From: Escherichia coli
Lineage (GTDB): Bacteria; Pseudomonadota; Gammaproteobacteria; Enterobacterales; Enterobacteriaceae
Assembly (NCBI RefSeq): GCF_024223415.1
Contig: NZ_CP100500.1
DNA length: 64,000 nucleotides
Reading direction: 5' to 3' (one strand)
Position numbers: made by a program. Below, piece by piece: positions 12,001-18,000 of the stretch. Every line of letters starts with the position of its first letter. The stretch's first letter is position 1.

Positions 12001-15000
12001 GGGGGTCATATGCAGTTGGAAGAAGTCGCTAAAGCGCTGAAAGAGCTAGGTCACCCGACCCGTTTGTTCATATTTAAACATCTTGTCAAAGCCGGGGAAC
12101 AAGGGTTGCCGGTCGGTGAGTTGCAAAAGCAGCTTGGGATACCTGGCTCCACACTCAGCCACCATATATCAGCACTGGTATCGGTAGGACTGGTCAAACA
12201 AAACCGTGAGAGTCGGACGCTGATGTGTGTTTCGCAATACGCAATGCTGGAAGCGATAATTGAATTCTTATGCGAGGAGTGCTGCGTAAATAGCAAAATT
12301 GCCTGATGCGTTACGCTCTACATATTTCATGCCATATATTGGATTTGCACGGTTTTGTAGGTCGGATAAGACGCGTTAGCGTCGCATCCGACATAAACAA
12401 AGCGCACTTTACCAACTATCGGCAGTGGATATCGCCGCTTTATTTCAGGCGCTTACCCGCTTCATCAACCACTTTCTCGCCATCTTCCTTGGAGAATGCG
12501 CCTTTTTGCGCATCTGGCAGAATTTCCAGCACCACTTCTGAAGGGCGGCACAGGCGAGTTCCCAGCGTCGTCACCACAATCGGGCGATTAATCAGAATCG
12601 GGTGCTGAAGCATAAAGTCGATTAACCGATCGTCAGTAAATTTATCTTCCGCAAGGCCCAGCTCCTCATACGGTTCGACGTTTTTACGCAGCAGCGCGCG
12701 TACGGAAATCCCCATATCGGCAATGAGTTTGACCAGTTCATCGCGCGTTGGCGGAGTTTCCAGATAATGGATAATGGTCGGTTCTGTACCGCTGTTGCGG
12801 ATCATCTCCAGCGTATTACGCGATGTGCCGCAGGCCGGGTTGTGATAAATGGTAATGTTGCTCATATCAGTATCTCATTACAAAGTGAAAGAGAGACGTA
12901 GCGCCAGCGCAGCCAGCGTCACAAACAGCACAGGCAGGGTCATGATAATCCCTGTACGGAAGTAATATCCCCAGCTGATAGTCATATTCTTCTGCGAAAG
13001 TACGTGCAGCCAGAGCAGCGTTGCCAGGCTACCAATCGGGGTGATTTTCGGCCCCAAATCGCAGCCAATCACGTTGGCATAAACCATCGCTTCTTTGATA
13101 ACGCCAGATGCCGTGCTGCCATCAATGGACAACGCGCCAACCAGTACCGTCGGCATATTGTTCATAATAGAAGAGAGGAAGGCGGTGAGGAATCCGGTGC
13201 CGAGCGTCGCGGCCCACAGGCCGTTATCCGCCAGCACGTTGAGTACGCCAGAAAGATATTCCGTTAGTCCGGCATTGCGCAGGCCATAAACCACCAGATA
13301 CATGCCGAGCGAGAAGATGACAATCTGCCAGGGCGCACCGCGCAGCACTTTACCCGTATTAATCGCATGACCGCGTTTAGCGACGACAAATAATATCAAC
13401 GCGCCCACTGCCGCAATGGCGCTGACCGGAATGCCGAGCGGTTCCAGGACGAAAAATCCCACCAGCAGAAGCAGTAAAACAACCCAGCCAGTTTTGAACG
13501 TAGCAGGATCTTTAATCGCTTCTGCGGGAGATTTCAGCAGCGCCATGTCGTAGTTCTGCGGAATATCTTTGCGGAAATAGAGATGCAACATCACCAGCGT
13601 GGCAACAATCGCGGCGATATCCACCGGCACCATCACCGAGGCATATTCGCGAAAGCCGAGGCCAAAGAAATCTGCGGAAACGATATTCACCAGGTTGGAG
13701 ACAATAAGCGGCAGGCTGGCGGTATCGGCAATGAATCCGGCCGCCATCACAAACGCCAGCGTAGTGCCTTTACTGAACCCTAAAGCCAGCAGCATGGCGA
13801 TGACAATCGGTGTCAAAATAAGCGCCGCGCCATCATTGGCAAACAGGGCGGCAACGGCAGCACCGAGCAGGACAATCCAGGTAAACAGCAAGCGACCGCG
13901 TCCATTGCCCCAGCGTGAAACGTGCAGTGCCGCCCATTCAAAAAAGCCGGACTCATCCAGCAGCAGGCTGATGATAATAACGGCAATAAACGCAGCCGTC
14001 GCGTTCCAGACGATATTCCACACCACCGGAATATCACCCGGATGGACCACGCCCGTAACTAACGCCAGTACTGCGCCGAGCGTTGCACTCCAGCCGATGC
14101 CTAAACCTTTCGGCTGCCAGATAACCAATACAATGGTCAGGACAAAGATAGCGCCTGCCAGTAACATAATGCCTCCTGGATAAAACACATGCGAAAATAC
14201 ATATGTGTTTAGCTAAATTTTTTAACTGCAAATGTTCTTACTGTCTACGGAACAATTTTGTCGGGCCAGGTTGCGGACAATCACCTGAACCTTTTCCTGT
14301 TCACATCGCCAGGCCTCATCAATAATTTTCGCCGCCCATACTGGAATATGTGGCGATAGGCGGTAATGAACCCACTTACCTTGCTTGCGGTCCAGCAATA
14401 GCCCGCTTTCACGCAGTAATGCCAGATGGCGGGATATCTTGGGCTGCGACTGATCGAGGGCAGTGCAGAGATCGCAGACGCATAACTCTCCCAGTTCGCT
14501 AAGCAGTAAAACGATGCCCAGACGGGTTTCATCAGCAAGAATTTTGAAGAGTTGGATGGGTAACAGAAATGACATATTACGCTCCTGATTGCTGCAGGTA
14601 GTGTCTCTCTTCGAAGCGGATAAGTCAAAAACATATATGGTTTAACGAATGCGTGTGTGCAGAGGAAGGTAATAGGTGTGAATTTTGAGTTGGCTATTCA
14701 TTTGAAAGGAGGTCTGAATCAGGACGTAAAAAAACCGACTTTGCGTCGGTTTTTTACTTTCCAGCCCAGAGTTGGTGGCTCTGGCTGGAGTGAGAATGCC
14801 ATCATCTAACGCATCAATGCTAATACCATACTGAAACTATTGCAAGGACATGCTGGTTTTATAACCTGAATATACTGTATGATTATCCAGTTGGCTCTGA
14901 GGCATTTTCACTCTGGCAATGCGCATAAACGCTTTCAAAGTCCTGATCAGTGGTACGGGTGGTGCCGTTAACTGATGCTCTGGCCGGAGTGAGAATGCCA

Positions 15001-18000
15001 TTATCTAACAATAGGGCATGCGCCGTGACAGGCAATGGATGAGTAAGCGGATGCATTCTCACTCCATCGTATGGAGAACACGGGTGATTGATAAAGCAAT
15101 CATCGTTCTTGGGGCGTTAATTGCGCTGTTGGAACTGATCCGCTTTCTGCTTCAGCTTCTGAACTGATAGCGGAAACGTAATTAAGGGCTAAGAGCACAC
15201 TACTCTTAGCCCTTTAACATTTAACGCATGGTCACGAACTCTTCTGCCGCCGTTGGGTGAATGGCGACGGTATTGTCGAAGTCTTTTTTGGTTGCCCCCA
15301 TCTTCAGCGCCACCGCGAAGCCCTGCAACATTTCGTCCATACCAAAACCAATGCCGTGAATACCGACAATCTTCTCTTCTGGCCCAACGCACACCAGCTT
15401 CATGCGGCACGGCTGGCGGTGAGTGGTGACGGCGGTATACATCGCAGTGAAAGAGGATTTATACACTTTCACCTGATCGTCGCCGTACTGCTCGCGCGCC
15501 TGCGGTTCCGTTAAACCAACAGTACCAATCGGCGGATGGCTGAAGACCACGGTCGGAATGTTGCTGTAATCCAGATGCTCATCCGGCTTGTTATTAAACA
15601 GGCGCTCAGAGAGGCGGCGACCCGCTGCAACTGCCACCGGTGTCAGTTCTACTGCACCCGTGTTATCGCCCACCGCGTAAATACCTTCAATGTTGGTGTT
15701 TTGATATTTATCGACGACGATATAGCCTTTTTCGTTGGTTTTAACGCCAGCGGCTTCGAGGTTGATGTTGTCATTGGCAGGCTCGCGACCAATCGCCCAA
15801 ATCAGGCAATCCACCGTTTCACTGTGACCATCTTCCAGCTCCAGCGTCAGGCTACCATCGGCATTTTTCACTACCGCTTTCGGGATGGCGTTGGTGTGCA
15901 ACTGCGGGCCTTCGGCGTTCATCACTTCGACCAGCGTTTCAGAGATCATCGGGTCGAAGCTGCGCAGCGGCGCATGTTTACGCACAAACAGATGCGTTTT
16001 CGCGCCGAGGCCGTTAATCACGCCTGCCAGTTCCACGGCGATGTAACCCGCGCCAACAACCGCCACACGCTCTGGCAAAGCAGGAAGGGCAAAGAAACCA
16101 TCAGAATCAATACCGTATTCCACGCCCGGAATATCCGGGTGGCTCGGACGACCGCCGGTGGCGATCAGGATATGATCGGCCGTGATGGTTTCGCCGTTTA
16201 CTTCAATGGTTTTGGCATCAACGAAGCGGGCAAAGCCTTTGATTACATCAACGTTATTTTTACCGAGCACGTTTTCATAGGAAGTATGAATGCGGTCGAT
16301 ATAGGCGGTACGGCTGGCGATCAACGTTTCCCAGTTGAATTTATTGATAGTGGTATCAAAGCCGTAGTCCGGGCCGTACATGTGGATCGCTTCACGGATT
16401 TGCGCCGCGTGCCACATCACTTTTTTCGGCACGCAGCCGACGTTCACGCAGGTGCCGCCCAGTTCTTTGGCTTCAATCAGCGCGCATTTCTGGCCGTACA
16501 TAGCCGCGCGGTTGATGGAGGCGATACCGCCGCTGCCGCCGCCGATGGCGATGTAATCATAGTGTTTAGTCATGACAGAGTGTCCTTATCGTTGATTACC
16601 GCGATTGTAGCGCGAGACGTAATAGGTGCCAGCAATGGCTGCAATTACTCCGGCACGATCCAGCTTACGGTGGCGTGCCCGGTGCCAGCTGGAACCAGTT
16701 TGCTGTGCAGCCACGGCAGCACGTTATTCATCTGCTGTTCCAGCTTCCACGGCGGGTTAATCACAATCATGCCGGAAGCGGTCATGCCACGGCGATCGCT
16801 GTCTGGCAGTACCGCCAGTTCAATTTGCAGAATTTTGCGAATGCCGGTCGCTTCCAGGTCGTGGATCATGCGCTTAATTTGCTGGCGCAGCACCACCGGA
16901 TACCACAATGCGTAAGTGCCAGTGGCGAAACGTTTGTAACCTTCTGCTATCCCGCTGACTACCGCCTGATAGTCGGTTTTCATTTCATACGGCGGATCGA
17001 TAAGGATTAAACCACGGCGAGAAACCGGCGGCAGTTTGGCCTTAAGCTGCTGGAAACCGTCGGATTTTTCGACGCGCGCACGGCTGTCTTTCTGAAATTC
17101 AGAACGCAGCAACGGGTAATCGCTCGGGTGCAGTTCGGTCAGTTGCAGGCTGTCCTGTTCGCGCAGTAGCTGGCGGGCAATCAACGGTGAACCGGGGTAG
17201 TAACGCAACTGACCGCTACGGTTAAAGTGTTTTACCACATTGATGTACGCCTCCAGCTCCGCAGGCAAATCGTCCTGCTGCCAGATACGGGCGATACCTT
17301 CGAGATATTCGCCGGTACGCTCGGCATGTTCGCTGCCTAACTGATAACGCCCGGCCCCTGCGTGGGTGTCGAGATAGAGAAACGGTTTATCTTTCTCTTT
17401 CAGCGACTCAATGATCAGGCTCTGAACGGTATGTTTAAGGACGTCGGCGTGGTTGCCAGCGTGAAAGCTGTGGCGATAACTGAGCATGGGTAAAGGTGTT
17501 CCGGTAAGTAAAAATCGGCCCGTATTCGGGGCGCACAAAAGCCTATCAGGACAGTATACCGAAAAGAGGCCGCCGCCGCGAAAGCGTAACGTTTCTCATT
17601 GAAATTCACTACACTTAACCCCATGCTACACACATTATGTAAAGCGCCTGTTGAGCGCTTCCTTAACCTCTTTAACCAGGACTGCGCTAATGACGAATCC
17701 GTTACTGACTCCCTTTGAATTGCCTCCGTTTTCTAAAATTCTCCCGGAACATGTCGTTCCAGCCGTGACTAAGGCGCTGAACGACTGCCGCGAAAATGTG
17801 GAGCGCGTAGTAGCGCAAGGAGCACCGTACACCTGGGAAAATCTCTGCCAGCCGTTGGCGGAAGTGGACGATGTGCTGGGGCGTATCTTCTCCCCGGTCA
17901 GCCACCTGAACTCGGTGAAAAATAGCCCGGAACTGCGTGAAGCGTACGAGCAAACCCTGCCGCTGCTGTCGGAATACAGCACCTGGGTAGGGCAACATGA

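Follow-up and report, generated by a model that had tools for sequence, protein, structure and literature searches.

In Escherichia coli K-12, dinQ-agrAB, a toxin-antitoxin locus of type I, lies in the arsR-gor spacer (PMC3567139; PMC5066626), which is 876 bp long and has both agrA and agrB annotated. The start site of K-12 agrA has been mapped and the gene is expressed (PMC3567139), and the AgrA RNA was inactive in vitro (PMC5066626). According to T1TAdb, AgrA is present only "in some bacterial strains" (PMC8594479), and therefore a pair of agr genes does not define the family. In the dql loci, the agrB-type sRNA pairs with ~35 nt of the 5' UTR (PMC12365149; PMC5066626). For dqlB-agrB of pOXA-48, a 4-nt mismatch abolished antitoxin function and a compensatory change restored it (PMC12365149). 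Peptide toxicity with rescue by the sRNA is reported only for K-12 (PMC3567139) and for DqlB of pOXA-48 (PMC12365149).

The DNA studied here (the window) is a stretch of 64,000 nt from E. coli, contig NZ_CP100500.1, and all coordinates refer to it. The whole dinQ-agr locus is held in a 645-bp arsR-gor spacer at 14576-15220, as defined by ORF calls and by the PGAP annotation of the identical sequence in E. coli SCU-316. It is bordered by arsR on the left (14222-14575, minus strand) and gor on the right (15221-16573, minus strand). The spacer is 100% identical in SCU-316, where dinQ is the only part of the locus that PGAP annotates, and an arsR-gor spacer was detected in 5,422 of 5,426 complete E. 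coli genomes. The alignment with the K-12 spacer, a check set beforehand, was not one-to-one but contained a single clean 231-bp gap; the inter-agr segment of K-12 is absent, and the window lacks exactly one 231-bp tandem unit. The K-12 architecture, with agrA proximal and agrB distal in a spacer of ~876 bp, is thus not that of the window. Apart from this gap all elements are collinear with K-12 and free of indels. The published K-12 element coordinates fit the window exactly, and +1 was fixed at 14890 by the published numbering of the GUG as G195 (15084) together with the gap-free alignment. Judged from its sequence, the region is very probably the E. coli chromosomal dinQ-agr type I toxin-antitoxin locus in a one-antitoxin configuration. 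The locus has already been characterised in E. coli, and the one-agr form is a common natural, ordinary allele.

The arsR-gor site, the DinQ peptide and the LexA box are shared with K-12 dinQ-agrAB (PMC3567139; PMC5066626). The dinQ ORF (15084-15167, plus strand) has a GTG start and encodes 27 aa plus a stop (VIDKAIIVLGALIALLELIRFLLQLLN), a short hydrophobic toxin with a single transmembrane segment as is typical of the family; the peptide is identical to K-12 DinQ (WP_001295215.1). The LexA operator TACTGTATGATTATCCAGT occupies 14873-14891 (plus strand), with its CTG..CAG core at 14875-14890, and overlaps both the transcription start and the dinQ -10 element TATGAT (14878-14883, plus strand), which lies inside it. 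It is the sole zero-mismatch match to TACTGT-N9-CAGT in the 64 kb and has the same sequence as the K-12 box, in keeping with a LexA operator at the toxin promoter of the chromosomal dinQ proper. The primary dinQ transcript of ~331 nt (14890-15220, plus strand; PMC3567139; PMC5066626) and the +44 processing site (14933, plus strand) were placed by transferring K-12 coordinates through the alignment. An inverted repeat at 15184-15214, terminator-like on the minus strand, forms a hairpin common to the convergent dinQ and gor, and is identical in K-12.

A single agr antisense sRNA gene of 84 nt (14726-14809, minus strand) matched the Rfam AgrB model RF02891 over its full length (1-84) with 107 bits, the gathering score being 40 bits. 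A second AgrB match to RF02891 was absent from the 64-kb window, and the K-12 control gave two. The gene adjoins the dinQ promoter and differs from K-12 by one substitution in its body. It ends in a rho-independent terminator hairpin (14729-14755, minus strand), an inverted repeat of AAAAAACCGAC and GTCGGTTTTTT with A and T runs on both flanks that equals the terminator stem of the Rfam consensus structure. An agr promoter could be assigned to 14817-14845 (minus strand), with -10 TAGCAT at 14822-14817, -35 TTGCAA at 14845-14840 and a 17-nt spacer; it agrees with the consensus at 8/12 positions, which is under the promoter-scan threshold, so that it was not flagged, and the region is identical to that upstream of K-12 agrA in the alignment. 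The seed, i.e., the 5' ~32 nt of the sRNA (14778-14810, minus strand), is complementary to the dinQ leader and contains a lineage-variable 8-nt patch at 14796-14803 (ATGCCATC on the plus strand; Agr RNA nt 7-14), which sits in the 5' tail that is unpaired in the Rfam consensus. As in K-12, the arrangement is divergent with 5'-to-5' antisense pairing, and the gene would encode the trans-acting sRNA typical of the family, with its 5' ~31 nt predicted to pair with the toxin 5' UTR. The sequence-only reading had given the spacer length, the DinQ ORF, the core of the LexA box a single agr unit and a divergent antisense sRNA ending near the hairpin at 14729-14755, as well as a longer spacer with two agr units in K-12; each of these agrees with the ORF calls, the SCU-316 annotation, the alignment or the Rfam match.

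The seed and its target are 33-nt direct repeats (14778-14810 and 14977-15009), which are identical at 31/33 positions and lie 199 bp apart. The pattern GGAGTGAGA-N8-ATCTAAC occurred at just these two sites in the window, with none expected from 100 shuffles. The GGAGTGAGAATGCC core occurs at 14787-14800 and again at 14986-14999, an inverted copy GGCATTTTCACTC is at 14901-14913, and GCATTCTCACTCC at 15053-15065 is complementary to 14986-14998 at 13/13 positions. The two repeat units with inverted copies described in the sequence-only reading are therefore present, but its coordinates were slightly off (14790-14803 and 14990-15003 for the cores, and 15052-15065 instead of 15053-15066 for the right inverted copy) and the units are not equivalent: the left repeat is the sRNA seed, whose target in the dinQ mRNA is the right repeat. 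The left pair, made up of the agr core and 14901-14913, does not form a hairpin: the Agr RNA and element 1 of the leader are same-sense, and each is the complement of element 2, for which they compete. The right-hand pair had been read as a stem in the dinQ leader, and it is indeed the published element 2:3 duplex (PMC5066626).

Four elements with mutually exclusive pairings (1:2, 2:3 and 3:4), as in the family, are predicted in the 5' UTR, all on the plus strand. Element 1 (U16-C28; 14905-14917) keeps element 2 locked while the mRNA is full-length, by the definition of PMC5066626, and its pairing in the window allele reaches out to 14901. The Agr target site (G88-A119; 14977-15009), placed by the published agrB binding region (PMC5066626), the direct repeat and duplex calculation, includes element 2 (14983-14995) and the variable patch ATGCCATT (14995-15002). 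Element 3 (U167-U178, or 15056-15067; 15053-15067 in all) is the anti-Shine-Dalgarno (anti-SD) sequence and the alternative partner of element 2, and its region forms a perfect 13-bp duplex with 14986-14998 in the window allele. Element 4 (A182-G187; 15071-15076) contains the Shine-Dalgarno (SD) sequence GGAG at 15073-15076. Elements 1, 3 and 4, the SD hairpin and the terminator are identical to those of K-12.

The predicted duplex energy was -62.0 kcal/mol for the window Agr with the window target, -62.1 kcal/mol for K-12 AgrB with K-12 dinQ and -46.6 kcal/mol for K-12 AgrA with dinQ; of the two positions that differ in the window pair (31/33 identities), one is a G.U wobble. On these predictions the retained agr is the cognate copy for its own dinQ target. 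It occupies the "agrA" position, unlike the cognate antitoxin of K-12, and the seed/target patch is ATGCCATC/ATGCCATT, compared with GAGTTCTT/GAGTTCTT in K-12. Since the window pair is as stable as that of K-12 AgrB, the regulatory complement is fewer in number but not evidently in function, and the earlier suggestion of a reduced complement is true by count and probably not by function, the cognate copy being retained and the layout being common. It could be argued that the retained gene is a non-functional AgrA-type paralogue, which would leave dinQ without an effective antitoxin and the locus reduced or deregulated, as its position and upstream sequence are those of K-12 agrA and its patch is closer to that of K-12 agrA (TAGCCATC) than to that of K-12 agrB. 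However, this is very unlikely given that the window target carries the matching patch and that each of the sampled strains that has a dinQ promoter retains one or more agr copies pairing at -55 kcal/mol or stronger.

Because 14977-15009 copies the agr seed directly, the right repeat might also be taken for a second, degenerate agr lying antisense in the dinQ leader, so that the locus would hold one cis- and one trans-encoded unit. The homology is confined to the 33 nt, though, with neither an agr body nor a terminator to its left; a permissive Rfam scan (E up to 1) returned no AgrB match there, the promoter scan showed no leftward promoter-like site from downstream of 15009, and in K-12 experiments defined the corresponding segment as the mRNA site bound by AgrB (PMC5066626); together these make this explanation extremely improbable.

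Among the 5,426 complete E. coli genomes, ~71% had two agr genes, ~14% had the one-agr layout (~768 genomes, by subtraction of 3,842 from 4,610) and ~15% lacked the agr promoter, LexA box and dinQ promoter. E. albertii and Escherichia sp. E1V33 likewise had the one-agr layout, and this recurrence argues that it is not an assembly artefact. A short-read assembly could merge tandem units of 199-231 bp that are highly similar over ~150 bp, but the probability that the true genome has two agr genes is close to nil: a finished genome has the same 645-bp structure at 100% identity and others have it at ~97%, those complete genomes and E. albertii share the layout, and most of the inter-agr segment of two-agr strains is unique sequence, which would not be merged in this way.

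The 8-nt patch in seed and target varied by lineage, always with one matching agr copy; in the sampled two-agr strains the cognate copy was distal in 8 and proximal in 8, and AR_0067 and RS571 had the same two agr patch alleles with different targets. Among E. coli target alleles that of the window is the most frequent, with its exact 71-mer present in 1,801 genomes compared with 1,672 of the K-12 type. Tentatively, and with a chance that falls a little short of even, the patch (Agr nt 7-14; dinQ +106 to +113) could be a specificity code in which the position of the cognate agr flips by lineage, and the textbook rule "AgrB antitoxin, AgrA inert" may hold the other way round for a large part of E. 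coli. The patch would then form at least four classes across Escherichia in which toxin and antitoxin co-vary (ATGCCATT, GAGTTCTT, ATGCCCAC and TAGTCGTC), just one copy would be cognate in two-agr strains, its identity flipping between lineages, and the window would represent the minimal state, with one antitoxin at the agrA position. Since seed and target are direct repeats on the DNA read from opposite strands, a short gene conversion would restore their complementarity automatically. By analogy, the mismatch and compensation result in dqlB-agrB supports the view that the patch differences here may determine specificity.

The patch of the window, in place of that of K-12, also leads to longer predicted duplexes within the leader: -32.9 vs -24.8 kcal/mol in K-12 for 1:2, and -25.2 vs -19.8 kcal/mol for 2:3, with the SD hairpin equal in both at -6.2 kcal/mol. 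In minimum free energy (MFE) folds the 1:2 duplex was present in the +1 form and the 2:3 duplex in the +44 form. When the Agr site was blocked, the 5' UTR fragment (+44..215) had the 3:4 SD hairpin as its MFE structure, and in the full-length +44 fold the SD was still paired, with other partners. In partition-function folding K-12 followed the trend of an SD closed in the +1 form, open in the +44 form and reclosed by Agr, whereas the SD of the window +44 form was mostly paired (mean P(unpaired) 0.12-0.16, vs 0.22-0.52 in K-12), a prediction of little weight either way as the same algorithm misses the 2:3 duplex published for K-12. In the window the 2:3 helix, being stronger, is predicted to lengthen by a CUCU:GGAG stack.

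The mechanism has been demonstrated in K-12 and is extended to the window from the sequence identity of every element. LexA would repress the dinQ promoter until DNA damage allows the +1 mRNA to be made; this would be inert, since pairing of element 1 with element 2 leaves element 3 free to close the hairpin over the SD. Removal of the first 43 nt would give the +44 form, in which the freed element 2 could pair with element 3, opening the SD for translation of the 27-aa membrane toxin from the GUG. The constitutive Agr sRNA, transcribed from 14809 to 14726, would pair with the target through its 5' ~32 nt and sequester element 2, so that the SD hairpin would reclose and the Agr:dinQ duplex would become a substrate of RNase III. 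Taken together, the locus is complete and, on its sequence, probably functional as an SOS-inducible type I system with a single cognate antitoxin.

For the window, the main value of these results is the correct annotation of dinQ-agr. More generally, the arsR-gor spacer is a small tandem-repeat system, in which three, two or one repeat copies correspond to two, one or no agr (the promoter being lost in the last case). That agrB is active and agrA inactive in K-12 is a position-dependent assignment and is not transferable to other strains by synteny, and annotation pipelines for sRNA/target pairs should therefore use complementarity to pick the cognate copy. Should the specificity classes prove orthogonal, the locus would offer a compact natural case of sRNA seed-target co-evolution.

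Tandem duplication of type I toxin-antitoxin units has reportedly been described by Wen and colleagues in 2014 for zorO-orzO / zorP-orzP of E. coli O157. The zor-orz sRNAs are said to differ by a few nt in the pairing region and not to be freely interchangeable, analogous to cognate and non-cognate agr, although there the toxin gene is reportedly duplicated too, whereas two-agr strains duplicate the antitoxin unit only. The dql loci, including dqlB-agrB of pOXA-48, resemble the window in having one toxin and one trans-acting agrB-type sRNA; unlike the window, they are addiction modules carried on plasmids, their peptides belong to another subfamily, and a LexA box is not mentioned in the available portions of the reports (PMC12365149; PMC5066626). 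The tisB-istR-1 system of E. coli is unrelated in sequence and uses a ribosome standby site rather than a four-element switch, but it shares with dinQ-agr a toxin under LexA control, a primary mRNA that is inert until 5' processing activates it (+42 in tisB, +44 in dinQ) and a divergent constitutive antisense sRNA acting far upstream of the RBS (PMC5066626).

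The dinQ-agr type I toxin-antitoxin locus lies in the arsR-gor spacer (14576-15220), between two minus-strand genes, arsR on the left (14222-14575) and gor on the right (15221-16573). The spacer sequence is 100% identical to that of E. coli SCU-316, in which the PGAP gene order (arsB, arsR, dinQ, gorA, rlmJ) is the same as in the window, and some spacer match was present in 5,422 of 5,426 complete E. coli genomes. The sequence-only reading of this region was essentially right. Its 27-codon, GTG-initiated DinQ ORF (15084-15167) encodes VIDKAIIVLGALIALLELIRFLLQLLN, which is identical to K-12 DinQ, and the LexA box that it had placed in the spacer (TACTGTATGATTATCCAGT, 14873-14891) is identical to the K-12 box and is the sole exact TACTGT-N9-CAGT site across the 64 kb. 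A 59-aa ORF (14883-15062, minus strand) runs antisense to the dinQ leader; its 57-aa counterpart is annotated by PGAP as "hypothetical protein" in some genomes (e.g., L008, an Escherichia locus used for comparison, 742-915) and is unannotated in others. The 59-aa ORF is probably an artefact of gene calling across the structured leader. Elsewhere in the window, an Rfam match to the shuA/chuA 5'-UTR thermoregulator (RF02597; 4486-4517, plus strand; 60.1 bits, gathering score 58) was located directly upstream of a 593-aa ORF (4515-6296, plus strand), which suggests the presence of a chu haem-uptake cluster.

The Rfam AgrB model (RF02891) had one match in the window (minus strand, 14726-14809), with 107 bits (gathering score 40) over the full model length. 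When run jointly on K-12, the same model gave two matches corresponding to the annotated agrA and agrB, so a second copy in the window would have been detected. The K-12 spacer is 876 bp long as compared with 645 bp here, and its alignment to the window contains a single 231-bp gap and zero further indels. The expectation of one antisense unit here against two in a longer K-12 spacer was thus confirmed, and the two spacers do not match one-to-one. Because the gap is located between the repeats, the agr gene of the window has the arsR-side flank of K-12 agrB, while its dinQ-side promoter and neighbourhood are those of K-12 agrA.

The two repeat units recognized from the sequence were also present, with their core coordinates off by 1-4 nt and the rest as described. 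They form a 33-nt direct repeat (14778-14810 and 14977-15009; 31/33 identities), and the core pattern has only these two occurrences in the window, where none was expected by chance. In the numbering of Kristiansen et al. the GUG start of the dinQ mRNA is at G195 (PMC5066626), which with the gap-free alignment places the dinQ +1 at 14890. The segments of the dinQ 5' UTR switch, transferred to the window from the same numbering (PMC5066626), are element 1 (U16-C28, 14905-14917), element 2 (G94-G106, 14983-14995), element 3 (U167-U178, 15056-15067) and element 4 with the SD (A182-G187, 15071-15076), and the AgrB binding site (G88-A119) is at 14977-15008. The right-hand repeat falls on this site and is therefore the sRNA target in the toxin mRNA. 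Its interpretation as a second sRNA gene was rejected for this coincidence; the Rfam search and promoter scan detected no agr body, terminator or leftward promoter beside it. A ~200-bp periodic homology over the entire spacer, with a decayed LexA box upstream of agr, was hinted at by repeat family D2 (14676-14695 vs 14877-14896, 75%) and was likewise rejected, as local alignments of 14576-14777 or 14576-14727 to 14811-14976 scored at the level of shuffled sequences (z = -0.1 and 0.8).

The right-hand repeat pair, in which GCATTCTCACTCC (15053-15065) pairs without a mismatch with 14986-14998, had been read as a stem of the dinQ leader, and it is indeed the published 2:3 duplex. The left-hand pair, whose second member is GGCATTTTCACTC (14901-14913), is not a hairpin; Agr RNA and element 1 carry the same motif, GGCAUU(C/U)UCACUC. 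Element 3 has this motif too, and the three compete for element 2. At repeat position 9 (window 14786 vs 14985) agr has T where the target has C, which becomes an A.C mismatch when the two RNAs pair. This single internal mismatch is kept in nearly all sampled pairs of a target and its cognate Agr (the copy matching the strain's own target) despite the co-varying neighbour patch; in N1131 the single seed/target difference is at the adjacent position 8 instead.

Two studies of K-12 (PMC3567139, PMC5066626) showed that LexA represses dinQ and that the +1 mRNA is kept inert by 1:2 pairing, which leaves 3:4 to sequester the SD. Processing at +44 strips element 1, so that 2:3 forms and the SD opens; AgrB binding to G88-A119 then recloses the SD hairpin and leads to RNase III cleavage. 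AgrA, with 25 of 31 positions matched, was reported there to be inactive in vitro. The same mechanism probably operates in the window, given that all dinQ-agr elements occur at K-12 spacing in the gap-free alignment and that similar duplexes are predicted. The predicted Agr:target duplex was -62.0 kcal/mol in the window, compared with -62.1 for K-12 AgrB:dinQ and -46.6 for K-12 AgrA:dinQ; at the two of 33 positions where seed and target differ, the duplex has the A.C mismatch also found in K-12 AgrB and a G.U wobble. The window agr promoter is identical to the sequence upstream of K-12 agrA, a gene known to be expressed (PMC3567139). The agr and dinQ promoters were placed by identity to mapped K-12 promoters; a consensus promoter scan recovered neither of them and gave a sole, chance-level site (14911-14882, minus strand). 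Predicted cis duplexes were stronger in the window than in K-12 for both 1:2 (-32.9 vs -24.8 kcal/mol) and 2:3 (-25.2 vs -19.8 kcal/mol), the longer duplexes being due to the window's version of a lineage-variable 8-nt patch within the repeat. Partition-function folding reproduced the closed/open/closed SD pattern for K-12. In the window +44 RNA the SD was predicted to be mostly paired, by software that also misses the published K-12 +44 structure, and the whole-transcript MFE gave 1:2 in +1 and 2:3 in +44 for the window while leaving the published K-12 +44 structure unrecovered.

Among the 5,426 complete genomes, the K-12 inter-agr segment, indicative of two agr genes, was found in 3,842 (71%) and the agr-promoter/LexA/PdinQ segment in 4,610 (85%), leaving by subtraction ~768 (~14%) with one agr. 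Another ~812 (~15%) have a spacer match and miss the latter segment, which corresponds to window 14811-14976. An even sample of 30 rows of the spacer-match ranking agreed with these shares (one agr in 5/30, two in 20/30, short form in 4/30). The short form, fetched from JA0266 (L003 938-1408) and 4/0 (L012), has a 408-bp spacer between arsC and gor, in which the agr seed repeat is fused with the dinQ target repeat into one. The LexA box, both promoters and element 1 are missing, while the DinQ ORF is intact and annotated as "damage-inducible toxin". The spacer thus occurs with three, two or one repeat copies, which is consistent with unequal recombination of direct repeats. In relatives of E. 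coli, one agr was found in E. albertii and Escherichia sp. E1V33 and two in E. whittamii. In 88-3493 (L013) and GF4-3 (L032), dinQ is absent and the LexA box is followed immediately on its right by a gene for an InsQ/TnpB-family RNA-guided endonuclease, so that the agr genes have no toxin gene at this site. A possible dql-type paralogue was seen in Escherichia sp. MOD1-EC7003, where a divergent DinQ-like ORF (GIVKAIIIPGVLIVLLKLIRFLLQLLN; L020 5207-5290) is accompanied by the conserved SD hairpin; an agr repeat, a LexA box and an agr terminator could not be recognised in its vicinity.

The K-12 inter-agr segment (846-994 of the K-12 locus) is homologous to the agrA-promoter/PdinQ/leader segment (z = 4.9, 0/500 shuffles) and holds stretches resembling a decayed LexA box (CGGTATATATCGCAGT) and element 1. 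By sequence comparison, the extra 231-bp K-12 unit is a diverged tandem duplicate of the proximal unit, and its divergence implies that the duplication is old. The agr units may thus have originated when the dinQ 5' region was duplicated in tandem. Neither the terminator-loop polymorphism (CTTTGCG vs CTTCGCG) nor the one in the agr body (CCAGAG vs CCTGAG) follows copy position consistently, and outgroups have either one agr (E. albertii) or two (E. whittamii); the one-agr state of the window may be ancestral or a secondary deletion.

The interest of the locus lies mainly in the population-level seed/target pattern and less in the window itself. The patch occupies repeat positions 19-26, i.e., Agr nt 7-14 in the unpaired 5' tail, and four target classes (ATGCCATT, GAGTTCTT, ATGCCCAC and TAGTCGTC) were distinguished in the 31 loci typed. 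In complete loci with the dinQ promoter, each strain has at least one agr copy at a predicted -55 to -70 kcal/mol, and non-cognate copies in E. coli strains are at a predicted -45 to -56 kcal/mol; the exception is E. whittamii, with both copies near -62 kcal/mol. The cognate copy in the sampled two-agr E. coli was the distal one (agrB position) in eight and the proximal one (agrA position) in eight. AR_0067 and RS571 share both agr patch alleles and differ in the target, so that a different copy is cognate in each. The proximal copy was cognate in all five sampled two-agr strains of target class ATGCCATT or its near variant ATACCATT. The exact target 71-mer of the window type was found in 1,801 genomes and that of the K-12 type in 1,672, which makes the window's target allele the commonest. 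Since seed and target are linked within 430 bp, inheritance alone is sufficient to keep matched pairs together. By analogy with the related pOXA-48 dqlB-agrB pair, in which antitoxin function is reported to be lost with a 4-nt mismatch (PMC12365149), it is plausible that the seed/target classes are functionally distinct.

The open-access literature gave no earlier account of agr copy-number classes, seed-allele variation or cognate-copy flipping, apart from T1TAdb, which notes that AgrA occurs only "in some bacterial strains" (PMC8594479). The system in the window is already known and its allele is ordinary. It is the orthologue of K-12 dinQ-agrAB, with which it shares all sequence-level defining features except the count of two agr genes, and two agr genes are not a requirement of the family.
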